From assembly GCA_963702425.1 (NCBI GenBank), contig CAVPCQ010000005.1, forward strand, positions 1-64,000: a stretch of 64,000 nucleotides of DNA. The letters are read 5' to 3'. The stretch's first letter is position 1; each line of letters begins with the position of its first letter. The notes under the pieces were generated by a model. It had not been told where the DNA came from. It did no database searches and saw only the letters and a list, made by a program, of their open reading frames with translations. Positions 17,808 through 48,080 of the stretch are shown one piece after another. The translations under genes and the position numbers were made by a program. The stretch comes from an uncultured Acidobacteriota bacterium. Lineage in GTDB: Bacteria; Acidobacteriota; Polarisedimenticolia; J045.

Positions 17808-17895
17808 ACCGTTCGTTGCGGACGGCGGGCCCGGGGGCCTCGAGCGGTCGTTCCCGGGCGACGAGCGGCTGTCGTTGCCCGCCGCGAGGAGCGGT
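17808..17895 (-). promoter_or_regulatory. Candidate LytTR boxes between the PP2C operon and top6A
   Basis: Minus strand GCCGCTCGTC-N11-ACCGCTCGAG (21 bp period, 17869-17839) and a third ACCGCTCCTC; also ACCGTTCGTT on + at 17808, one mismatch from the AlgR box ACCGTTCGTC. Confidence 0.4.
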
Positions 17896-17971
17896 GGAAC
17901 ACTCTCCGGCCCGCCGGAGCCGGCCGGAGGGCTGGCCGGGTGGCACGGGACCGGCGAACGGCGAGGACGCG

Positions 17972-19114
17972 ATGGGCAAGCGCAGGGACACGTCGCAGGC
18001 GAAGAAGTCCAAGGAGGCGCTCGACCGCAAGACGGTGACCGCGATCGTCGGCGCCGCCGACCGGGTCTACGACCGGATCATGGAGGGCCAGAAACCCTCG
18101 ATGTCGTTCCCGCTGCGGACGCTCTCGAACGTCCGCTACGACAAGGACCGCGGCTATTTCGAGATCGGTCGCTCGAAGAAGAGCCGCACCATGACCGTCT
18201 CCACCGTCCGGACCTTCGCCCAGACGCTGCGGATGATGTCGCTCTCCAAGGAACTGGTCGAGACCGACGACTTCGCGACCAAGCGAGACGCCTACTACCA
18301 GTCCAAGAACTGGGCCGACGCCGCCTTCGCCGAGCAGGGCGAGTCGGACACGGTGATGGACGACATCGAGGCACTCTTCTCGGTCGAGGGGATCAGCCGC
18401 GAGCAGCTGCGCTTCGTCCCCGACGAGCACGGCGGCGCCGTCGCCGGCCGGCTGGTCGTCTTCGATCCGGACTACGCCACCGGAGAGGTCCACCGGATCG
18501 ACTGCACCCAGTTCGGTTCGGGGGCCTACAGCATCCCCTCGCTCGTGGAACACCTCTCGTTCGAGACCGACGCCAGATTCGTGCTGGCGATCGAAACGGG
18601 CGGCATGTTCCAGCGCTTGCAGAGCCACCGGTTCTGGGAGAAGGCGAACTGCATCCTGGTCTCGATGGCGGGCGTCCCGACGCGCGCCACACGCCGCTTC
18701 ATCCGCAAGCTCTCGGACGAGTGCAAGCTCCCGGTCTTCGCCTTCGTCGACTGCGATCCCTACGGGATCTCGAACATCTACCGCACGCTCAAGGTCGGGT
18801 CGGGCAACGCGGCGCACATCTCGCGCTTCTTCTGCGTCCCGAATGCGCGCTACCTCGGCGTCACGCCGCAGGACATCGTCGACTACAAGCTGCCGACCCA
18901 TCCGCTCAAGGACGTCGACGTCAAGCGGGCCAAGGACGCCCTGAAGAACGACCCGTTCTTCAAGGCCTTCCCGGTCTGGGCGAAAGCGATCGAACAGCTG
19001 CTGAAGATGGGGGTCCGCGCGGAGCAGCAGGCGCTGGCGAAATGGGGCCTGAACTACGTCCTCGACGAGTACCTGCCGCGCAAGTTGGCCCAGCCCCAGC
19101 AGTTCCTCCCCTGA
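17972..19114 (+). CDS. top6A: DNA topoisomerase VI subunit A (Spo11-like)
   Basis: Catalytic-Tyr motif ATKRDAYY, Q.ESD..MDDIE, TOPRIM glutamate (AIETGGMFQRL), GVPTRATRRF, DCDPYG, C-terminal RAEQQAL. Confidence 0.9.
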   Translation: MGKRRDTSQAKKSKEALDRKTVTAIVGAADRVYDRIMEGQKPSMSFPLRTLSNVRYDKDRGYFEIGRSKKSRTMTVSTVRTFAQTLRMMSLSKELVETDDFATKRDAYYQSKNWADAAFAEQGESDTVMDDIEALFSVEGISREQLRFVPDEHGGAVAGRLVVFDPDYATGEVHRIDCTQFGSGAYSIPSLVEHLSFETDARFVLAIETGGMFQRLQSHRFWEKANCILVSMAGVPTRATRRFIRKLSDECKLPVFAFVDCDPYGISNIYRTLKVGSGNAAHISRFFCVPNARYLGVTPQDIVDYKLPTHPLKDVDVKRAKDALKNDPFFKAFPVWAKAIEQLLKMGVRAEQQALAKWGLNYVLDEYLPRKLAQPQQFLP

Positions 19115-30463: not shown

Positions 30464-33400
30464 ATGAGGAAAGCGATCCTGATCGTCGCTCTGGCGATGC
30501 TCGTCGCGATCCCGGTGGTCCTCGCCCAGCAGCCGACCACGGGGACCCTCCAGGGTCTCGTCGGCGAGCAGGACGGGAAGCCGCTGCCGGGCGCGACGGT
30601 CGTCGTGAAGGGCCCCCTGGGCGAGCGCGCTGCGCAGACCGACGCCAAGGGCCAGTTCGAGTTCCGCTTCCTGCCGGCCGGTACCTACACGGTGCGGGCG
30701 GAGATGCCGGGCTATTCCACCGTCGAGATCGGTGGGGTCGACATCAACGCGGCGGGGCGGACACGTCTGCCGATCACGCTGCTCCCGGGCCAGACCGCGG
30801 AGATCACGGTCTCAAGCGCCGCGCCGCTGCTCGACGTGAAGCGCACGACCGTCGCCACCTCCTTCAAGTCGAAGTCGCTCGAGACGCTGCCGATCGGCCG
30901 CAACTTCACCGACGCGGTGTCGTTCGCACCGGGCGTCGTCTCCGGCCTCGGCACCGGCCAGGGGAACTACTCGATCGGCGGCTCGTCCGGCCTCGAGAAC
31001 AGCTACATCATCGACGGCGTCAACATCACCGACAGCGGCTACGGCGGCGTCGGGACCTACTCGCTGGTCTACGGCTCGCTGGGCACCGGCATCACGACCG
31101 ACTTCCTCGACGAGGTCGCGGTCAAGACGGGCGCCTTCGACGCCGAATACGGCCAGGCGCTGGGCGGCGTCATCACCGGCGTCGTCAAGTCCGGTACCAA
31201 CGCCTTCAGCGGCGCGCTGCGCGCCTACTACAGCATGTGGAACGAGGGCAAGAACGTGTCGCTCCCGACCGGCGCCACGAACACCGGCTGGCAGGACTCG
31301 GACCAGTGGGACGCCGGCATCTCGCTCGGCGGCCCGATCGTCAAGGACAAGCTGTTCTGGTTCGTCGCCTACAACCCGGTGAAGACGACCACGAACTTCA
31401 CGCGCCAGTCGGTCCAGAACCCGATCTTCGCGCTCAGCAACCCCCTCGGCCCCGGCATTCCCTCGATCTACGACAGCGAGCAGGCCTTCCCGGCCTCGCA
31501 GACCGGCGGCGTCAACATCGAGCGGACCAACCAGAACTACGCCGCCAAGGTCAACTGGCAGATCACCCCGAGCCACCGGATCGAGCTCACCGGCTTCGGC
31601 GACCCGTCGGACGGCGACGGCCGCACCGGCATCACCTACAGCACGTTCAACATGACCGGGCGCCAGAGGGCCCTCGGCGCGGCCCCAGTTTCTCGCTCAA
31701 TGTCGAGAAGACGGCGGAGGGCTTCGGCTCCGGCGGCAAGTCGAACATCGACTACGGCGCCGACCAGTACTCGCTCAAGTACTCCGGCCTGTTCGGCAGC
31801 GACTGGTTCGTCGAGGCCCAGGTCAACTACCGGAACAACGAGTTCACCGAAACCCCGGTCGACAACGACTACGCCTACACCGACACCCGCATCGCGCGCG
31901 AGTGGACCTTCGGCGGCACGCTGCCGTACTCGGTCTCCCCGAACTCCGGCGGCCCGGGCTACATCGGCCCGCAGACCGACAAGAGCTGGGACTACGCGCT
32001 GAAGGTCTCCAAGGTCTTCGGCAACCACGAGCTCAAGGCCGGTGTCCAGTACTTCGACCTCGAGTACGCGCAGACCTCCGCCTATTCCGGACCGAGCGGC
32101 GACCTTCAACTTCCCGGCCGACTTCAACGGCGACGGCACTCAGGACGGCTTCGTTCCGCTGCAGTCCGCCTCCGGCGCGACGGTCTCGATCCGCGGCGGG
32201 TTCGACTACCGCGATGCGGAAGGGGACCTGGTCGTTCCGTGCACCGGCTGCTCGTTCTCGCGCGGCTTCCCGAGCTACCGCACGACGCGCGCCCGCTTCA
32301 ACCCGGAGTCGCGGCTCCGACCAAGGCGACCGACCTGTCGTTCTTCCTCCAGGACACCTGGACGATCAGCGACTCGTGGATGGTGAAGGTCGGCCTGCGC
32401 ACCACGACGCAGACGCTCGAGGGCTCCGGCGCCTTCACGCTCGGACTTCGCGCGCGCCGGCACCGTCGATCCCGAGTACCTGAGCGCCCCGACGTTCGAC
32501 GCGGGTTTTACACCGACACCCCGACCACCTACGCGCCGAACAAGTACGATTTCAGCCACCGAGTGGTCGCCGCGCATCGGCGTGACCTGGGACCCGGGCG
32601 CCGACGGCAAGTCCAAGATCGCCTTCAACTTCGCGCGCTACTTCCAGCGCGTCCCGAACGACCTGGCGGTCCGTCAGTTCTCGAACGAGGTCGGGACCAC
32701 GACCTTCACCTTCACCGACCCGTACCTCACCACCCCGACCGCGACCAACGCCCCGAACGTCCAGGGGATCGACCTCGGCGTCGTGGCCAACGGCACCAAG
32801 CTCCCGTACGTCGACGAGTACGTCCTGGGCTGGCAGCAGCTGATCCGGCCCGACCTCTCGATCGAGGTCCGCGGGATCTACCGCGACCAGGGCCGCGTCC
32901 TCGAGGACACCCAGAGCGGCACCGTCGAGGGGATCAAGAACTCCTACTACGGCGTCCGACGATCGACCCGGACGGGGACGGTACGTTTGATCAAGTGGAC
33001 GGCGACAGCATCAACTCAGTCCCGTTCCCCGGCTTCGGCTTCGACGTCTTCGGCGCCTACGTCCTGTCCAACCCGGGCGAGAACGCGCCCGGCGGCTTCA
33101 CGGCCCCGATCCGCAAGTACAAGGCCCTCGAGATCGCGCTGACCAAGCAGCTCTCCAACAACTGGCAGTTCGCCGCCAACTACCGCTACGCGCGGCTGCG
33201 CGGCAACTACGAGGGCCTGTTCCGCAACGACAACGGCCAGTCCGACCCGAACATCACCTCGCTGTTCGACTTCCCCGACTCGCCGCTGATGCGCGGGCAG
33301 TTCGAGACCGGCCCGCTCAACTCCGACCGCCCGCACGTCTTCAACATGTTCGGAACCTACTTCTTCGACTTCGGCCTCGAACTCGGCGGCGCCTTCCAGT

Positions 33401-37677: not shown

Positions 37678-38454
37678 TTACAGGCAGCGCGCGGTCACGC
37701 CCCCGTCCACCGGGATGATCGCCCCCGTCACGTAGCTGGCCTGCTCCGAGCAGAGGAACGCGACCGGCGCGGCGATCTCTTCCGGCGAGGCCAGGCGTCC
37801 CATCGGCACCATCGCCTCGAGGGCGCGCACCCGCTCCGGGGTCGCGGCGAGCTCCTCGATCCGCGCCGTCCGCGTCATCCCCGGGCAGACCGCGTTGATG
37901 GTGATCCCGTGGACCGCGTTCTCGCGCGCCAGGTCGCCGATCAGTCCCGCCACCGCGGGGCGCAGCGCGTTGCTGGTCGTGAGCCCCCCGAGCGGCTGGC
38001 GCGCCGTGAGGGACAGCACGTGGACGATCCGGCCGAAGCGCAGGTTCCGCATCCGCGGCAGGACCGCGCGCGACAGGCGGATCGCGGGCCAGAGCACGCT
38101 GTCGATCGCCTCCCGCCAGGCCGGCTCGTCGAGCGCGTCGAAGTTCCCCGGCGGCGGTCCGCCGACGTTGGCCACGAGCAGCTCGACCGGCCCCAGCTCG
38201 CGGGTCACTTCGGAGACCGCGCGAAACGGCGCCTCGGGGTCGGTCAGGTCGCCGGGCACCGCCAGCACCGGACGCCCGCAGCTCTCCGCGATCTGCCGCG
38301 CGGCGCCGGCCAACCGCTCGGCGTCCCGCGAGAGGATCGCCACCCGCGCCCCGGCTCGCGCCAGCGCGCGGGCGCAGGCCAACCCGATTCCCGAGCTGGC
38401 GGCCGTCACCAGCGCAACGCGCCCCGGGATCGCGTACATCGCCTCGTCGATCAT
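37678..38454 (-). CDS. SDR family oxidoreductase
   Basis: ALVTAASSGIG, NVGGPPPG, SNALR, INAVCPG, YVTG..IPVDGG. Confidence 0.88.
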   Translation of the reverse strand: MIDEAMYAIPGRVALVTAASSGIGLACARALARAGARVAILSRDAERLAGAARQIAESCGRPVLAVPGDLTDPEAPFRAVSEVTRELGPVELLVANVGGPPPGNFDALDEPAWREAIDSVLWPAIRLSRAVLPRMRNLRFGRIVHVLSLTARQPLGGLTTSNALRPAVAGLIGDLARENAVHGITINAVCPGMTRTARIEELAATPERVRALEAMVPMGRLASPEEIAAPVAFLCSEQASYVTGAIIPVDGGVTARCL

Positions 38455-39689
38455 CCCGCGGCCTCCCCCCGCATCAGCCGCAGCGCGGCGCGGAGCATGA
38501 TCTCGACGCCGATCGGAAGGACTTCGTCGGCGACCCGGAAGCGCGGGTTGTGGTGCGGGTGGATCGCACCCTGCGCCGGATCGCGCATCCCGAGCAGCAT
38601 GAACGCCCCGGGCCGCTGCTGGAGGTAGATCGCGAAGTCCTCCGCCGCCATCGTCGGTGGCCCCTCGCGCACCGCGCTCTCGCCGAGCACCGCGCGCGCC
38701 GCCTCGCGCAGCACGCGGGCGACCTTCGGATCGTTCACGGTCGGGGGGTATCCGGTCCCGAAGTCGACCTCGACCGAGACGCCGTGCGCCAGCGCGATCG
38801 CCTGCGCCAGCTCGCCGATCCGGTGCAGGATCCGGCCGCGCACGACGCCGTCGGGCGCGCGGAACGTGCCGTGCAGTTCGCCCCGCTCCGGCAGCACGTT
38901 GCAGGCGTGCCCGGCCGCGATCTTGCCGACCGACAGGACGGCCGGCTTGAGTGGGTCGATCTCGCGCGCCACCACCTGCTGCAGCGTGACGACGAGGTGC
39001 GAGAGCGCCAGCACGACGTCCTGCGCCTCGTGCGGCAGCGCGCCGTGCCCCCCCTTGCCCGAGATGGTGACGTGGAACTCGTCCGACGACGCCATCACGT
39101 GGCCGTCCGGGATGATCGCCTGGCCGCGCGGCAGGAAGCTCCAGAGGTGCAGGCCGAGCACGTAATCGACCCCCCAGGTGTCGAGCACTCCTTCCTCGAC
39201 CACCCGTGCGGCGCCCGGGCCGTTCTCCTCGGCCGGCTGGAACAGCAGCACGATCCGCCCGGGAAGCGTCCCCGCGCTCCCGGACTGCGCGCGCGCGATC
39301 GTCTCGGCCACGCCGAGCAGGATCGCCATGTGCCCGTCGTGACCGCAGGCGTGCATGAAGCCCGGACGGCGCGAGCGGGGGGCGTGCTCGGGATCCTCTT
39401 CGATGGGCAGCCCGTCCATGTCCGAGCGCAGCAGCACGGTCGGGCCGGGGCCGGCGCCCGGGAGCTCGGCCACGAGCCCGGTGCCGGCGACGCCGGTCCG
39501 GGCCTCGATCCCGCACGCCGCGAGGGCCGTCCTCAGGTACGCGGCGGTCTCGTGCTCCTCGAAGCCTCGCTCGGGGATCTCGTGCAGCGCGTGGCGGTGC
39601 TGGACCACCGCCGCACCGGTCGCCCGCGCGCGGCACGCCAGGTCCTCGTCGAGCGGGGACCCGGTCCCGGGAACGTTCGCTGGACTCAT
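38451..39689 (-). CDS. M20 family amidohydrolase
   Basis: LHEIPE.GFEE, RSDMDGLP, MHACGHDGH, FQPAEE, GGHGA.PH, AEDF, HHNPRF. Confidence 0.92.
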   Translation of the reverse strand: MSPANVPGTGSPLDEDLACRARATGAAVVQHRHALHEIPERGFEEHETAAYLRTALAACGIEARTGVAGTGLVAELPGAGPGPTVLLRSDMDGLPIEEDPEHAPRSRRPGFMHACGHDGHMAILLGVAETIARAQSGSAGTLPGRIVLLFQPAEENGPGAARVVEEGVLDTWGVDYVLGLHLWSFLPRGQAIIPDGHVMASSDEFHVTISGKGGHGALPHEAQDVVLALSHLVVTLQQVVAREIDPLKPAVLSVGKIAAGHACNVLPERGELHGTFRAPDGVVRGRILHRIGELAQAIALAHGVSVEVDFGTGYPPTVNDPKVARVLREAARAVLGESAVREGPPTMAAEDFAIYLQQRPGAFMLLGMRDPAQGAIHPHHNPRFRVADEVLPIGVEIMLRAALRLMRGEAAG

Positions 39690-39702: not shown

Positions 39703-40395
39703 TCAGGGGGTCCTGAGCCCGACGTCGACGCGCTCGGCGACGAGGCGCGGCGGGTTGAGTGCGCGACCCGCGGTCATCCCATAGCTCTTCGAAAAGACGA
39801 TCGCGCGGCCGGCTGCCTTGCGCGTCGCCCCGTAGTCGATCGAGCGCTTCATGAACTCTCGCGACGCGACCGGCGTCTCCGGATCCTTGCGCGTGTCGAG
39901 CTCCCACTGCCCTTCCCACACCTTGCGCGGGCGCGACAGGTCGTCGAAGACCCAGATCTCGCCCCAGCGATCGACCTTCTCGGCGCTGAGCGAGCGGTCC
40001 CAGGTCAGGATCAGCTCGTTGCGGCGGTCGCCGTCCAGGTCCGCGGCCTGCAGGTCGCCGCCGTGCGCCGGCCGGCCGGTCGTCGCCGCGAGGTGCCGCG
40101 TCCACAGCAACGCACCCTTCTCGGCCGGCGCCTTCCCTTCGATCACGCCGACGATCACCTCGGTCCCCTTGGCCGGGTCCTTCTCGCGCGTGATGGCGGT
40201 CACGATCACGAGCGTCTCCGGTACCCCGTCGCCGTCGAGGTCGGCACTGCTGCGGGTGTAGTTCATGCGGGCCCCGACCGGGACCTGGCGCGGATCCTGC
40301 GGAACGGTGGCCACGGACTCCGCGGCCAGGGCGATCCCTTGGCCCGCGAGCAGAACCGCCAGGAACCGAAGGGTGAGGGCACGATTCGGGGTCAT
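39703..40395 (-). CDS. Secreted protein with two FG-GAP/Ca-binding-like motifs
   Basis: Signal peptide; ADLDGDGVPE and ADLDGDRRNE. Confidence 0.65.
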   Translation of the reverse strand: MTPNRALTLRFLAVLLAGQGIALAAESVATVPQDPRQVPVGARMNYTRSSADLDGDGVPETLVIVTAITREKDPAKGTEVIVGVIEGKAPAEKGALLWTRHLAATTGRPAHGGDLQAADLDGDRRNELILTWDRSLSAEKVDRWGEIWVFDDLSRPRKVWEGQWELDTRKDPETPVASREFMKRSIDYGATRKAAGRAIVFSKSYGMTAGRALNPPRLVAERVDVGLRTP

Positions 40396-40486
40396 CCAGC
40401 CTCCCCGCCGCCTCGGCGACGGACGGTCAGGATAACCCGGGCGGCGCGTCCGCCGGGGCCTGGCCGCCCGGTCCCTGCTCAGGCCC

Positions 40487-41644
40487 TCAGGAGCCCGCGG
40501 GGGCCCCGGAGCCGCCCCCTGCGGCGGGTCCCTGCGCGGCCGGAGGCGGGGTCACCTGGAGCCGGACCGGAACCTCGAGCCGCGGCGCCTTGGGGTGGGA
40601 GGTGGTCACCACCAGCGTCCCGAGGTGGACCCCGGGCGCCAGGGCGGGGCCGCGAACCGCGATCTCGATCGGATGGACCCCGGCCGGGCCCGCGTTCAGG
40701 GAGCGCGCGGTGGCGCCGGCGAGGTCGCCTTCGACGGCGAGCCCGGTGACCTCGAACTGCTGGGCCCCGCTCGCCCGGAGATCGACCCGGCCGTAGGCCG
40801 CCACGGCGGCGCCCTGGGCGACGATCGACACCGCCGGCGGGTAGGCCTCGAGCGGCGCTGCGACCCGGATCCAGACCGGCAGGTTGATCGTGGGGCGCGC
40901 CGGGTGGTTGGTCTTGAGCGCGAGCGAGGCGTTCTGCTGCGTCGCCGCGTCCGCCGGACCGAAGCTCAGGGTCGCCTTCACATCGCCGGCTTTCGTTCCG
41001 CCGGGAACGCCCGGGGTGCCCGGGTCCGCGGCCGTCACCGGCTCGAACCGGGCCTCGACACCGGCCGGAAGCGCCGCGCCGTCGGCCAGTCCGACCTGCA
41101 GCGGCTGCCCGTCGTCACGCCGGAAATAGACCGAGGCGGTCGCCTTGTCACCGATCGTGGTCGGGAGGGCGATCGTCCCCGGCGGGAACTGCGCGACCGG
41201 CATCTTCACGTCGAATGCGATCGTCAGGTACGGATTCGGTTGCGCCGGATCGTTGGTCGTGACGGCGATCGACTTCGTGACCCGCCCCTGGTAACCGCGG
41301 GTGTGGACCTTGGCGACGATCTTCCCCGACCCACCGGGCGGGATGGCCGAGTCGTACTCGGCGACGGTACAGCCTCACCCAGGCTTCACCTGGAGCAGCT
41401 TGAGCTCCGCGTTGCCGGTGTTCTTCACCACGAAGGTCCCGACCGCGTCATCCCCCTCGGGGATCGAGCCGAGATCGACGTTGAGCGCCTCGAAGGCGGC
41501 GGCGGGCGCGGGCGCTCCGGGTGCAGCCACGGGGACGACGGCCGGCGCGGGGGGCGCGCCGGCGGCCGGCGCCTTCTCCGCGGCCGGCACGGCGGCGGCG
41601 GCCATGAGGAGCGGCAGGAGCACAGCGAACGGGCGGCGGCCCAT
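40487..41644 (-). CDS. DUF1573 (Ig-like) secreted protein, probable selenoprotein (in-frame UGA at 41375-41377, codon 90)
   Basis: ORF-track fragments 41375..42055 and 40487..41209 are in the same frame and separated by one TGA: F.VKNTGNAELKLLQVKPG-U-GCTVAEYDSAIPPGGSGKI...KSIAVTTNDP. GGAGG RBS and signal peptide present; 385 aa if read through. Confidence 0.8.
41346..41362 (-). other. Candidate bacterial SECIS hairpin
   Basis: GCCGAGU-ACG-ACUCGGC perfect 7-bp stem starting 12 nt 3' of the UGA. Confidence 0.55.
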
Positions 41645-41718
41645 CGAACCCTCCACGAGAGGCTGGGGATTGTACGGTGTGTGGGGCGCCGCGCCCACCG
41701 TGGCCGAGACGATCCGGG

Positions 41719-42771
41719 CTAGCGACGCCGGGTGCCGCCCGGCGAGACGAGGGTCTCGATGAAGATCGACAGCATCTCCTGGTCGAAATGCGCGCCCATC
41801 TCGCGCCGCATCAGCCACAGCGCCTGGAACCCGGTGAACGCCGGACGGTTGCGGAACGAGGTCGTCAGGGTGTCGAAGGCGTCGGCGATCCGGACCAGTC
41901 GGGCGGCGAACGGGATCGCGCGACCGGTGAGCCCGGCCGGGAAGCCGCTGCCGTCGGCGTTCTCGTGGTGATGCGCGACCACCTCGAGGCAGGTCCGGTC
42001 GTCCCAGCCGGCCTCGCGCAGCAGCGAGGTGCCGCGCATCGCGTGCTCGCACCACTTCGGGTAGTCGGGGTCCCCGGGCGGGCAGTCCTTCTCGGTGATC
42101 GAGCGCGGCAGGCCGGCCTTGCCGATGTCGTGCAGCAGCGCGGCCCGCCCGATCCGGGCCACCTCGTCGAGATCGCCGACGCCGCAGGCGAGCGCCAGCT
42201 CGGTCGTGTAGAACGCAGCGTGCTGGCAGTGCGAGAGCGAGTTGTAGTCCAGACGCATCAGCTGGACCATCGTCCCGTAGGCGGCCGGCTCGTCCATCAG
42301 GAAGCGCCCGGTCGCCTCCGCGACGTGGTGCACGCGCTCCGGTAGCCCGGGCGAGGCCAGGTCGGCCATCGCCGCCTCCACCACGCGGCGCGAGACGCCG
42401 AGCAGCGCGACGCAGCGCTGGTCGACCGGCCGGCAGGGATCGCCGAGGACCTGCGGCAGCCGGGCCTCGTCGGGCGGCAGCGGCGGTGCCGGTGGGACGG
42501 CCGCGGGGGGCGGGCCGAGCGGCGCCTTGTTGTGGCGGACCCGGTAGCTCTCGAACACCCCCATCTGCCCGGCCGGGACGAGCAGCCGCTCGACCCCGTT
42601 GGCGATCAGCCGCGCCTGGATCTCCGGCGTGAACTCCATGTCCTTGTGGCGGTAGTGCAGCGGCTTGCGCCCGGGGTGCCAGAGATAGAGGTCGAAGTCG
42701 AGCACCGTCGCCGGCTCGAGGTGCTCGAGCTGGATCGCGAAGAAGTTCGGATCGACGGCCACCGACTCCAC
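41719..42771 (-). CDS. HD-GYP domain phosphodiesterase (c-di-GMP)
   Basis: GTG after GGAGGGG; LLHDIGK, HHENADGSGFP.GL.G..IP..AR..IADAFD, HFD motifs (GFP variant of GYP). Confidence 0.85.
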   Translation of the reverse strand: MESVAVDPNFFAIQLEHLEPATVLDFDLYLWHPGRKPLHYRHKDMEFTPEIQARLIANGVERLLVPAGQMGVFESYRVRHNKAPLGPPPAAVPPAPPLPPDEARLPQVLGDPCRPVDQRCVALLGVSRRVVEAAMADLASPGLPERVHHVAEATGRFLMDEPAAYGTMVQLMRLDYNSLSHCQHAAFYTTELALACGVGDLDEVARIGRAALLHDIGKAGLPRSITEKDCPPGDPDYPKWCEHAMRGTSLLREAGWDDRTCLEVVAHHHENADGSGFPAGLTGRAIPFAARLVRIADAFDTLTTSFRNRPAFTGFQALWLMRREMGAHFDQEMLSIFIETLVSPGGTRRR

Positions 42772-42808
42772 GGTCTCTCCCCTCCGGCGCCGCAGCGGGT
42801 TACCGCTC

Positions 42809-42835
42809 TCATCGGCCGCGGACGGCGGCCCTTGA
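42809..42835 (-). promoter_or_regulatory. Putative sigma28 (FliA) promoter of the HD-GYP gene
   Basis: TCAAG-ggccgccgtccgcg-GCCGATGA, with boxes and spacing identical to 23236-23262. Confidence 0.65.
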
Positions 42836-42869
42836 ACCGGGAACGGGGGATTCATGCGGGAGCAGCGGC

Positions 42870-42957
42870 TGGCGGAGGGGGCGGGATTCGAACCCGCGGT
42901 GGCTTGCGCCACGCCGGTTTTCAAGACCGGATCCTTAAACCGCTCGGACACCCCTCC
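42870..42957 (-). tRNA. tRNA-Ser(TGA)
   Basis: GGAGGGG/CCCCTCC acceptor stem + GCCA; anticodon arm CCGGT-CTTGAAA-ACCGG; long variable arm; GGTTCGAATCC. TACAAT -10 box just upstream. Confidence 0.96.
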
Positions 42958-43013
42958 GGCTGCTCCATTGTAGAGGGGACCGGCGATCGGGCCCGCGGTC
43001 CGGCGCCGGGGAC

Positions 43014-43922
43014 TCAGACCCCGACCGTCTCGTGCGCCGCGGCCACTGCCGGACCGGTGACCGTCCGCCCGCTCTCGATCGCGACCCGCTGCGCGAGCCG
43101 CACCAGCGCTTCGGCGGCCGGCGCGCTCGGCGCGAGCGCGATCAGCGGCTGCAGCATCCGCATCGACATCTCGACCTGCGGGTCGTCGGGAACCTCGGCC
43201 AGCAGGGGCAGCTCGAGCCCGCCCAGCTGCTGGGCCAAGGAACGCAGGTGCTGCTCGGCGCTCACCCCCGTCCCGGGGCGACAGCGGTTCAGGATCAGAG
43301 CCGGGCGCAGCGTTCCGCGCTCCACGGCCGACTCCTCGCGCAGTGCGTTCATGTCGCGTACCAGGTCGTCGAGCGAGGTGTAGACGCGCGGCCGGCGCGG
43401 CGACTTGCCCCGCTGCCCGCGCGTGGAGCGGCGCACGCGGGCCAGCGACAGCAGGCGCCGGGCGTCGGCCAGCGAGACCGGGTCGGGCGTGGCGACGACG
43501 ACCTGCTGGTCACCGGCCAGGAACAGGTCGAGCACCTGCGGCGTCACGCCGCCGGGCAGATCGACGACGACCACCTCGGCGTCGAGCTGCCTGAGGCCGT
43601 GCGCCAGCTGCACGATCTCGGCCCCGGTGAGACCCGACATGCGCAGCGTCTCGCCGGTACCGGGAACGAGCGACAGCAGCGGGTGGCCGGCGACCGGCAT
43701 CACCGCGTCCTTCATCGCGGCGACCTCGCCGCGGAGCAGTTCGAGCAGACCGCGCTGCGGCGAGAGCACCCCGAGCATCAGGTGCAGGTCCGCACAGCCC
43801 AGGTCGAGATCGACGAGCGTGGTGCGCACGCCGGAGTGCGCGAGCGCCAGGCCGAGGTTGGCCGCGAGGAACGACTTCCCCGTTCCACCCTTTCCTGAGC
43901 CGAGCGTGATGACGCGCGCCAC
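43014..43922 (-). CDS. MinD/FlhG(FleN)-family P-loop ATPase
   Basis: ITLGSGKGGTGKS..AANL, VDLDLGCADL, VVDLPGG, VATPDPVSLADA, LILNR. Confidence 0.85.
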   Translation of the reverse strand: MARVITLGSGKGGTGKSFLAANLGLALAHSGVRTTLVDLDLGCADLHLMLGVLSPQRGLLELLRGEVAAMKDAVMPVAGHPLLSLVPGTGETLRMSGLTGAEIVQLAHGLRQLDAEVVVVDLPGGVTPQVLDLFLAGDQQVVVATPDPVSLADARRLLSLARVRRSTRGQRGKSPRRPRVYTSLDDLVRDMNALREESAVERGTLRPALILNRCRPGTGVSAEQHLRSLAQQLGGLELPLLAEVPDDPQVEMSMRMLQPLIALAPSAPAAEALVRLAQRVAIESGRTVTGPAVAAAHETVGV

Positions 43923-45918: not shown

Positions 45919-46929
45919 TCACGAGAGGTACTGGCCGAGCCGCTCCGTGAGGTCCACCACGCGCTGCGAGTAGCCCCACTCGTTGTCGTACCAGGCCAGG
46001 CAGCGCAGTTCCTTCGGCCCGACCATCAGGGTCGACGGCGCGTCGAAGATCGAACTGTGCGGGTTGCCGATGATGTCGGACGACACCAGCGCCTCTTCCG
46101 AGTACTGGAGCACGCGCTTCAGGGGCCCGAGCGCGGCAGTCTTCATCGCCGCATTGACCTCCTCGGCGGTCGTCGTCCGGTTCAGCCGTACGACGAGGTC
46201 GACGACCGAGCCGTCCGGAACCGGGACGCGGATCGCGGTGCCGTCGAGCCGTCCTTTCAGTTCCGGCAGCACCTTGCCCACCGCGCGCGCGGCCCCGGTC
46301 GTGGTCGGGATCAGGTTCTCGGCCGCCATCCGGGCGCGCCGGAAGTCCTTGTGCGGGACGTCGGCCAGCCGCTGGTCGTTGGTATAGGCGTGGACGGTCG
46401 TCATGAAACCGCGCTCGATGCCGAAGCTGTCGTGCAGCACCTTCGCAACCGGGGCGAGACAGTTCGTCGTGCACGAGGCGTTGCTGACGATGTTGCTTCC
46501 CGGCCCCAGCACGCCGTCGTTGACGCCGAGCACGACGATCGCGTCGACCTCGTCCTTCGGTGGCACGGTCAGGATGACCTTCCTGGCCCCCGCCGCGAGG
46601 TGCGGCTCGAGCTTCGCGCGGTCCCGGAAGATACCGGTCGCCTCGATCACCACGTCGACGCCGACCGCCTTCCAAGGCAGCTTCGCCGGATCCTTCTCCG
46701 AGGTCAGCCGGACCTTGCGCCCGTCGAGGATCAGCGCCCCGTCCTCCCAGCTGATCGTGCGCTTGAACGGCCCCATGACCGTGTCGTAGCGCAGCATGTA
46801 GGCCAGCGTCTTGGCGTCGAACAGGTCGTTGATCGCCACGACCTCCATGTCGTCGCGGTGGCTCATGATCCGGAAGACGGCACGGCCGATGCGCCCGAAT
46901 CCGTTGATTCCGACCTTGATCTTCGTCAT
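45919..46929 (-). CDS. gap: Type I glyceraldehyde-3-phosphate dehydrogenase
   Basis: GINGFGRIGR, SNASCTTNCLAP, TVHAYTNDQ, PTTTGAA, AIRVP, WYDNEWGY. Confidence 0.95.
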   Translation of the reverse strand: MTKIKVGINGFGRIGRAVFRIMSHRDDMEVVAINDLFDAKTLAYMLRYDTVMGPFKRTISWEDGALILDGRKVRLTSEKDPAKLPWKAVGVDVVIEATGIFRDRAKLEPHLAAGARKVILTVPPKDEVDAIVVLGVNDGVLGPGSNIVSNASCTTNCLAPVAKVLHDSFGIERGFMTTVHAYTNDQRLADVPHKDFRRARMAAENLIPTTTGAARAVGKVLPELKGRLDGTAIRVPVPDGSVVDLVVRLNRTTTAEEVNAAMKTAALGPLKRVLQYSEEALVSSDIIGNPHSSIFDAPSTLMVGPKELRCLAWYDNEWGYSQRVVDLTERLGQYLS

Positions 46930-47964
46930 GCCCGCACCTCCGGGAGCTTGCCGTCCTGCCGACCGCAGAGCCGCACGAGGTCGGTGACGCGGTTCGCGTA
47001 GCCCCAGCTGTTGTCGAACCAGAGCAGGACCTTGGCCAGGTTCCCCTCCTGGACCATCGTCGCCAGCGAGTCGAAGTGCGACGAGTACGGGCTCTTGAGC
47101 ACGTCGCTGCTGACGATCGGGTCTTCGAGGTACTCGAGGATGGCGCGGTAGGGCCCGGCGGCGGCGCTGCGCATGATCTCGTTGATGCCGTCCTTCGTCA
47201 CCGCTTTGCCGAACCAGAGCGTGAGGTCGACGATCGAGCCGTTCTGCACCGGCACCGAGAGCGCCGCGGCCGTCAGCTTCCCCGCGATCGGCGGCAGGAC
47301 CTCGCCGATCACCGCGGCCGCATTCGTCTCGGAGGGGATGATGTTCTGCGCGGCCGCGCGGGAGTTGCGGAGGTTGGTGCCCGCCGGCACGTCGGCCAGG
47401 CGCTGCGCATTGGTGTAGGCGTGGATCGTGGTCAGGTGCGCGCGCTCGATCCCGAAGGCGTCGTTCAGCGCCGCCAGGGCCGGCGTCGTGGCGTGCGCGG
47501 TGCACGAAGCGGCGCTGATCACCTTGTGCGCCGGGCTTCAGCACGCGGTCGTTGACGCCGTAGACGATGTACGCGTCGGGGTGCTCGGCCGGCGTCGGCG
47601 GCGCGCAGAGGACCACGCGGCGGGCGCCGGCGTCGAGGTGCCGGCGCAGCGCGCCGACGTCGCGCGGCTTGCCGGTGGCTTCGATCACGTAGTCGACGCC
47701 GTAGTCGCTCCAGCGGATCTCCCCCGGCTCTCGGGCGTTGAGCAGCGGAATCTCGCGGCCCCAGGTGTAGAGCTTGCCGTCCCGGTGGCGGACTTCGTCC
47801 TCGAAGCGGCCGAAGGTCGTGTCGTAGCGCAGGAGGTAGGTCAGGGCCTCCGGGTCGGCGATGTCCGAGATCGCGCCGATCCGGATCTCCTCGCTGCGGG
47901 CGAGGAGCCGGAAGACGTTCCTCCCGATGCGACCGAAGCCCATGAGCCCGATCGTAATCGGCAT
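46926..47964 (-). CDS. Divergent GAPDH-family paralog, frameshifted near 47533
   Basis: GLMGFGRIGR N-domain joins (one extra base) to HKVISAASCTAHA, TIHAYTNAQ, WFDNSWGY; stop overlaps the gap start (ATGA). Confidence 0.85.
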
Positions 47965-48080
47965 GTGCGGTGTCCCCTTTCTGCGTGGACTGCGTGGTCC
48001 GGCCTGCGGCGGGCCCCTCGCCCGCGGCACGGCCGCAAGGGTTCATATTATGCCGCGGCGACCGGAAGGCTAACCGGTGG

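Follow-up and report, generated by a model that had tools for sequence, protein, structure and literature searches.

Within the analysed stretch of 64,000 nucleotides from an uncultured Acidobacteriota bacterium (hereafter the window), two minus-strand open reading frames share a frame and are parted by a single TGA, and the question raised by this locus is whether that codon ends a protein, marks a broken gene, or is translated as selenocysteine (Sec). A sequence-only reading of the window had proposed the last of these, namely a secreted DUF1573-type selenoprotein that gene callers would miss. This interpretation is now supported by the Sec machinery of the genome, by an alignment column that holds either TGA or a Cys codon, and by a covarying hairpin, and we are highly confident that the UGA of codon 90 is a genuine site of Sec insertion.

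The locus and its reading frame

The ORFs called under translation table 11 (41375..42055 and 40487..41209) lie in one common frame with only the TGA at 41375-41377 between them, which confirms what had been read from the letters. When TGA is translated as Sec (U), the minus-strand frame starts at an ATG (41644-41642), ends at a TGA (40489-40487) and yields 385 residues with zero other stops; around codon 90, the codons read AAG CCT GGG TGA GGC TGT ACC. The basic elements of the gene are as follows.

40487..41644, minus strand: selenoprotein gene with 385 codons, one of them the internal Sec codon, and a closing TGA at 40487-40489; orthologues align with it over its entire length
41649..41654, minus strand: Shine-Dalgarno-like GGAGGG, 5 nt upstream of the ATG, read directly from the sequence
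41375..41377, minus strand: Sec codon UGA, residue 90; TGA in 28 of 28 stop-bearing copies at this column, with TGC or TGT in the two Cys forms (L024, L048)

TGA also terminates the selenoprotein gene itself and two of its neighbours (39703-40395 and 38451-39689), and it is therefore an ordinary stop codon in this genome, with no global recoding of UGA, as the sequence-only reading had argued. The GC content of the window is 73.4%.

The expectation that gene callers would split the gene was borne out in a protein-collection search restricted to proteins of 212-678 aa. The 12 closest database relatives are fragments of 238-273 aa, which share 69-92% identity with the query and cover 56-71% of it; Pfam domains are absent from all of them, and any name given is "hypothetical protein". 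Within the size range of 212-678 aa, this large collection returned no entry for the full-length read-through product. Judged by the named public records, the close relatives come from Acidobacteriota and Thermoanaerobaculia metagenome-assembled genomes. The gene is systematically split in this Thermoanaerobaculia-related lineage and is hence hidden.

Family assignment and earlier records

The read-through protein belongs to a family already described. It matches PF07610 (DUF1573) over residues 51-137 with an E value of 1.1e-19 and 70.7 bits, above the cut-off of 26.1, and it also matches a HYDIN/VesB-like Ig domain in Pfam. Against the NCBIfam model NF041425, "OS_HP2 family (seleno)protein", it scores 92.5 bits (E 1.6e-26) when Sec is written as C; the six-frame search gave 86.9 bits.

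41234..41494, minus strand: DUF1573 / OS_HP2 Ig-like domain, residues 51-137, with the motif U90-G91-C92 (PF07610, NF041425; domain model pLDDT 94.8)

In this motif, Sec takes the position of the first Cys in the invariant CGC of the family, and both Cys/Sec columns are invariant in the 27 full-length and 46 domain sequences aligned; the earlier placement of the UGA on the first Cys of a DUF1573 domain was thus sound. The curated NF041425 cut-off of 100 bits is not reached by the window protein. In a survey of the phylum, this model found a match at E <= 1e-10 in 144 of 301 sampled genomes; its cut-off is evidently strict, since only 4 of the 301 score above it, and none of those four matches contains a stop. 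Among the matches listed, 40 of 150 have one TGA anywhere in the match, and 71 further matches exist.

Whether the family was already catalogued had been left as a question, and the answer is yes. Table 2 of a 2007 study (PMC1976440; Zhang & Gladyshev) introduces OS_HP2 ("Olavius symbiont's hypothetical protein 2") among new selenoprotein families, and a 2008 study of the GOS data has the entry "OS_HP2 pfam07610 UxC" and counts 2 selenoprotein sequences against 354 Cys homologues (PMC2398784). OS_HP2 / DUF1573 with the UxC or UGC motif also stands in tables of reviews from 2022 and 2026 (PMC9312934, PMC13188914). The main text of the BSepDB paper makes no mention of DUF1573, OS_HP or Acidobacteria, and a literature search found no paper combining 'Thermoanaerobaculia' and 'selenoprotein'.

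The window gene is a new, unannotated member of the OS_HP2 / DUF1573 selenoprotein family. Because the family has been listed as a selenoprotein family since 2007 with the same motif, the locus was recognized correctly but is nothing new in kind. Like the known members, it combines PF07610 with a U-G-C motif whose Sec replaces the first Cys of CGC, has many Cys homologues, and carries a SECIS-like hairpin shortly downstream of the UGA; it differs from them in falling below the NF041425 cut-off. The host differs as well: the original members are from deltaproteobacterial worm symbionts and ocean reads, whereas the window belongs to a Thermoanaerobaculia-related acidobacterium. The three-domain architecture and length of 385 residues are common to orthologues in 27 other genomes of the class.

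The main value of the finding is for annotation. Since the gene is systematically split and NF041425 narrowly misses it, the selenoproteome of these soil and sediment Acidobacteriota is under-counted. Knowledge of Sec recoding is left unchanged, and the locus does not reveal the function of DUF1573.

Conservation of the UGA column

A six-frame search of 61 related genomes gave matches in 38, including all 22 genomes of the same taxonomic family (the tallies of the 61-genome and 301-genome searches include two genomes, G034 and G082, flagged as unpublished, on which none of the specific claims depends). Thirty-one loci (L024-L054) were examined, of which 30 cover the Sec column; the remaining one, L042 of G002, is cut off by a contig end and retains only the C-terminal third. 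When homologues were compared at the UGA column, as the sequence-only reading had suggested, TGA was present in 28 of the 30 covering loci, with no other stop codon at this position, and Cys in the other two. The 28 TGA loci are that of the window and those of 27 other genomes; 20 of these genomes are among the 22 of the same family, and the other 7 represent five further families of the class. The two Cys codons are TGC in L024, a paralogue in the genome of the window, and TGT in L048 of G037. L024 is a Cys-form DUF1573/OS_HP2 paralogue at 261194-261484 of contig 6 (G000); it has no hairpin and coexists with the Sec form. One further genome of the family, G019, gave only a more distant, stop-free match.

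Relative to the window gene, the orthologues range from 91% down to 26% in whole-protein identity, and the best-conserved part of the protein is the region after the UGA. The conservation of the downstream two-thirds among orthologues argues that the UGA is not the end of the protein. Going by these sequences, the putative Sec form is near-universal in the Thermoanaerobaculia-related family of the window (20 of 22 genomes). Several Acidobacteriota genomes (e.g., G081, G066, G084, and G099) have two or three OS_HP2-domain matches, each with one in-frame TGA, and the Sec form may be multi-copy in some lineages of the phylum.

Further TGA forms, all with a hairpin at the equivalent place, occur in Syntrophobacteraceae, another "delta proteobacterium", Chitinispirillaceae, Ignavibacteria, and Zixibacteria. 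They belong to a second set of loci (L055-L092), from which 7 TGA copies and 44 Cys-codon copies were scored and in which the Bacteroidota copies are all of the Cys form. Loss of the Sec trait was considered as the cause of replacement of Sec by Cys and rejected, selA being present in all 5 genomes tested, including three with only stop-free matches.

The downstream hairpin as a probable SECIS element

The perfect 17-nt hairpin noted earlier, GCCGAGT-ACG-ACTCGGC, was confirmed at 41362-41346, starting 12 nt after the TGA. A second, weaker element follows it directly.

41343..41365, minus strand: SECIS-like hairpin with a core 7-bp stem and 3-nt loop at 41346-41362; the RNAalifold stem extends to 41343-41365
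41325..41342, minus strand: second, weaker conserved hairpin over the Pro-Pro-Gly-Gly codons, with 92% of cells paired and one covarying pair

Folding energy relative to shuffled sequences is unremarkable (z = 0.01 for a 76-nt fold) and uninformative in a window of 73% GC. Since the energy is no better than that of shuffles, the comparison across genomes must carry the argument for a SECIS element. An Rfam scan of 40000-43200 at E <= 1 returned only a tRNA-Ser and chance matches, none of them on the hairpin.

The 28 Sec forms align without gaps over the hairpin. In the 7-bp stem (helix 1), 95.8% of cells are paired, and three of the seven pairs show changes on both sides. Pair 19-29 is GC in 21 sequences, UA in 3, CG in 2, and UG in 1; pair 20-28 is AU in 15, CG in 6, GC in 2, and other or unpaired in 4; and pair 16-32 is GC in 13, GU in 11, and AU in 2. 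A single stem mismatch occurs in five sequences: four have A opposite G at pair 20-28, and one breaks pair 21-27. The two tested helices jointly reach a covariation score of 0.212, against 0.089 +/- 0.014 for shuffles (reached by 0 of 500) and 0.001-0.089 for controls in which the 3' partners were slid by 1-3 columns, a comparison to be read with the relatedness of the sequences, the coding nature of the region, and the derivation of the tested structure from one of the sequences in mind. RNAalifold independently recovers the same stem and adds up to three pairs.

The compensatory changes cross codon boundaries, so that Glu...Ser (GAG/TCG) becomes Arg...Arg (CGG/CGG), Ser...Glu (TCG/GAG), or Ala...Ala (GCG/GCG). 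Two amino acids changing in step are what a constraint on the RNA over a coding sequence predicts, and the locus offers a clean example of RNA structure shaping a protein: residues four positions apart change jointly while the SECIS stem stays paired. The hairpin is thus maintained through compensatory changes and is missing from the Cys forms, which settles in the affirmative whether it is conserved together with the TGA. Folded over 29 nt, the 28 Sec forms average -13.6 kcal/mol (range -6.9 to -19.3), compared with -3.6 and -5.4 kcal/mol for the two Cys forms, L024 and L048. The second set gives -8.5 to -14.6 for its 7 TGA forms and 0 to -8.3 for its 44 Cys-codon copies, many of the latter being from low-GC Bacteroidota; the 8 Cys copies with a window GC of at least 0.59 fold at -2.2 to -8.3, touching the weakest TGA form (-8.5).

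The apical loop is ACG, or TACGA if the closing pair opens, and across the Sec forms it reads TACGA or TTCGA, with the loop G (column 25) conserved in at least 90% of sequences. The bSECISearch rule places a G among the first two loop bases; the conserved G of the window hairpin is third or fourth, presumably one or two positions later than that consensus. The E. coli minimal SECIS is reportedly a 17-nt upper stem-loop located 11 nt from the UGA, as Liu and colleagues are said to have found in 1998. The window hairpin resembles this fdhF-type element in forming a stem-loop within the coding sequence a few nucleotides past the UGA, at the same length of 17 nt and 12 nt downstream, and in having a conserved loop G. 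It is unlike the fdhF-type element in its TACGA/TTCGA loop, which is not of the GGTC type, and in having no bulged U, and it is a predicted target of SelB.

In the second hairpin, the pair formed by columns 39-50 is GC in 12 sequences, UA in 6, GU in 2, and other in 7. This hairpin may be a by-product of the CCN/GGN codons; as a lesser possibility, it could form part of a two-part recoding signal.

Selenocysteine machinery of the host genome

The genome of the window (5.1 Mb, 42 contigs, 91% complete) was searched for the Sec machinery, and all four components sought are present. The matches to selB (313 bits), selA (507 bits), and selD (340 bits) are all over their respective cut-offs, and a tRNA-Sec on contig 39 scores 70.8 bits and is called by ARAGORN as tRNA-SeC with anticodon TCA. 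The selD gene has its own in-frame TGA in an N-terminal Cys-Ala-Gly-Sec context and is itself a selenoprotein gene; it lies on contig 16 (G000; L010:1471-2460), with a long hairpin with a GGTC-type loop directly after its UGA. The loop of the window hairpin differs in type from this selD SECIS of the same genome.

Within the window, a tRNA-Ser (anticodon TGA) at 42870-42957 on the minus strand scores 49 bits on the Rfam tRNA-Sec model, for which the gathering score is 47. It was rejected as a tRNA-Sec, being a long-arm tRNA-Ser, with the real tRNA-Sec on contig 39.

Each of the 23 genomes of the taxonomic family has a selA match, and in 22 it exceeds the cut-off. The 5-contig assembly of the closest relative, G004, has selA (contig 4, 1016061-1017270) in two adjacent pieces that cover model positions 2-207 and 208-409, which suggests a frameshift or an assembly indel.

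Decoding of the UGA

In the mechanism that we propose, the UGA at codon 90 would be read as selenocysteine during translation of a 385-residue OS_HP2 / DUF1573 protein. The hairpin 12 nt downstream would act as a bacterial SECIS, recruiting SelB with Sec-tRNA(Sec) to the ribosome.

A different form of read-through, independent of SelB and Sec, would place Trp, Cys or Arg at the UGA by near-cognate decoding, with the hairpin only slowing the ribosome or reflecting constraints on the protein. The dissimilarity between its loop and that of the selD SECIS, as well as its location within conserved coding sequence, would fit such a reading; however, the column alternates solely between TGA and Cys codons, the hallmark of Sec/Cys pairs; this genome has the full Sec machinery, and selA occurs throughout the taxonomic family; and the protein family is curated as a selenoprotein (NF041425). 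Read-through of this kind is therefore considered improbable.

It is more improbable still that the UGA terminates translation, so that two products would arise, an N-terminal peptide of 89 residues and, by restart at the GTG at 41209, a C-terminal protein of 240 residues. A GTG-started ORF (40487..41209) does exist, and proteins of the corresponding size, 238-273 aa, are the close relatives found in public collections. Nevertheless, a break at the UGA would halve the DUF1573 beta-sandwich, which in the structural model folds confidently as one unit across the UGA; residues 91-145, between the TGA and the GTG, are the most conserved part of the protein and include invariant residues; and the restarted product would do without the signal-like N-terminus carried by all orthologues.

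Finally, a nonsense mutation or sequencing or assembly error, which would make the gene a pseudogene or a misassembly, can be set aside, since, despite the apparent indel lesions elsewhere (e.g., a GAPDH copy with domains in different frames near 47530) and the split selA of a close relative, TGA stands at the same column in 27 other, independently assembled genomes even where whole-protein identity drops to 26%, the domains beyond the UGA are conserved, and the other lesions seen are all frameshifts and not substitutions, just as the sequence-only reading had described them.

Architecture and possible function of the protein

With Sec at residue 90, the full-length product would have an N-terminal signal peptide and probably be exported by the Sec pathway, followed by three tandem Ig-like (ASH/PapD-like) beta-sandwiches, as predicted by modeling. 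Apart from the DUF1573 domain given above, its parts are as follows.

41576..41644, minus strand: candidate N-terminal signal peptide, residues ~1-23, recognized by eye from a basic start, a hydrophobic core, and an Ala-rich end
40859..41197, minus strand: predicted second Ig-like beta-sandwich, residues ~150-262 (AlphaFold2 pLDDT > 90; tandem Ig/ASH matches)
40550..40852, minus strand: predicted third Ig-like beta-sandwich, residues ~265-365, then a Pro/Ala/Gly-rich tail (AlphaFold2 model)

The N-termini of the orthologues are equivalent and, judged by eye, signal-like; the confidence of the model is low in this region. Export by the Sec pathway appears likely from these N-termini. The RR at residues 3-4 might point to a Tat signal, but this is unlikely because the RR pair is not kept in the orthologues.

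The full-length AlphaFold2 model, built from 27 sequences, has a pLDDT of 90.1 and a pTM of 0.75 and shows three tandem beta-sandwiches after a disordered Pro/Ala linker. Domain 1 modeled alone from 46 sequences reaches a pLDDT of 94.8, with the U-G-C motif between strands 37-44 and 49-53 (domain numbering); Sec90-Gly91-Cys92 is accordingly predicted to occupy a turn between two strands of domain 1. A PDB sequence search with the whole protein gave 0 matches at E <= 1, and Foldseek with the whole model returned only generic tandem-Ig and HYDIN-like matches. With domain 1 alone, Foldseek retrieved a Porphyromonas gingivalis protein and ASH/PapD-like domains, among them those of HYDIN and related proteins. 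The former (PDB 2qsv, strain W83, a protein of unknown function) has the same fold at a TM of 0.80, an rmsd of 2.1 A, and 21% identity, and the HYDIN ASH/PapD-like domain (2e6j) shares the beta-sandwich fold at a TM of 0.75. Unlike the window protein, both are Cys or non-Cys forms, and they have no assigned chemistry, so that no function can be transferred from them. The literature searched for the term DUF1573 likewise yielded no function.

The U-G-C turn of domain 1, in which Sec90 and Cys92 flank a glycine, could plausibly be redox-active as a selenylsulfide or bind a soft metal or metalloid. The CXC motif (Cys-Gly-Cys) is said to be a redox motif and small mimic of protein disulfide isomerase, as Woycechowsky and Raines reportedly described in 2003. 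The likeness, drawn from sequence and model, consists of two chalcogen residues with one glycine between them in an exposed turn; the window protein differs in having Sec first and an Ig-like instead of a thioredoxin-like scaffold. By this analogy, we tentatively suggest, as one possibility less probable than its alternatives taken together, that the Sec-form protein may be an extracytoplasmic selenoenzyme, the exposed U-G-C turn of which either cycles as a selenylsulfide, as in an oxidoreductase or isomerase of the CXC type, or binds a soft metal or metalloid. If true, this would be the first biochemical function for DUF1573.

Genomic neighbourhood and other features of the window

Upstream of the selenoprotein gene lies an HD-domain protein (41719-42951), the listed ORF of which overlaps the tRNA-Ser gene, so its true start is further in. 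Downstream, the genes at 39703-40395 and 38451-39689 encode a small secreted FG-GAP-like protein and an M20 peptidase, respectively. Among the 30 loci with matches, the HD-domain gene is upstream in 16 and the FG-GAP-like gene downstream in 13; these loci all belong to the one taxonomic family, and neither neighbour was found in the other families of the class. The arrangement is read as inherited gene order and does not count in favour of a functional link to these neighbours.

Elsewhere in the window, tandem GAPDH genes are present on the minus strand. In the upstream copy (46926-48042), the N-domain runs from ~47965 and the C-domain (46926-47537) lies in another frame, which places a frameshift near 47530-47540; this copy is either a pseudogene or the product of an assembly indel. 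The downstream copy, ~46905-45919, looks intact. A TonB-dependent receptor-like ORF at 30464-33142 on the plus strand ends after 512 aa, having covered CarboxypepD_reg, Plug, and the first part of the barrel. Short ORFs with no Pfam matches follow it, and this may be another frameshifted gene. Additionally, a topoisomerase VI subunit A / Spo11-like gene with TP6A_N and Toprim domains is located at 17816-19114 on the plus strand, in agreement with the sequence-only reading.
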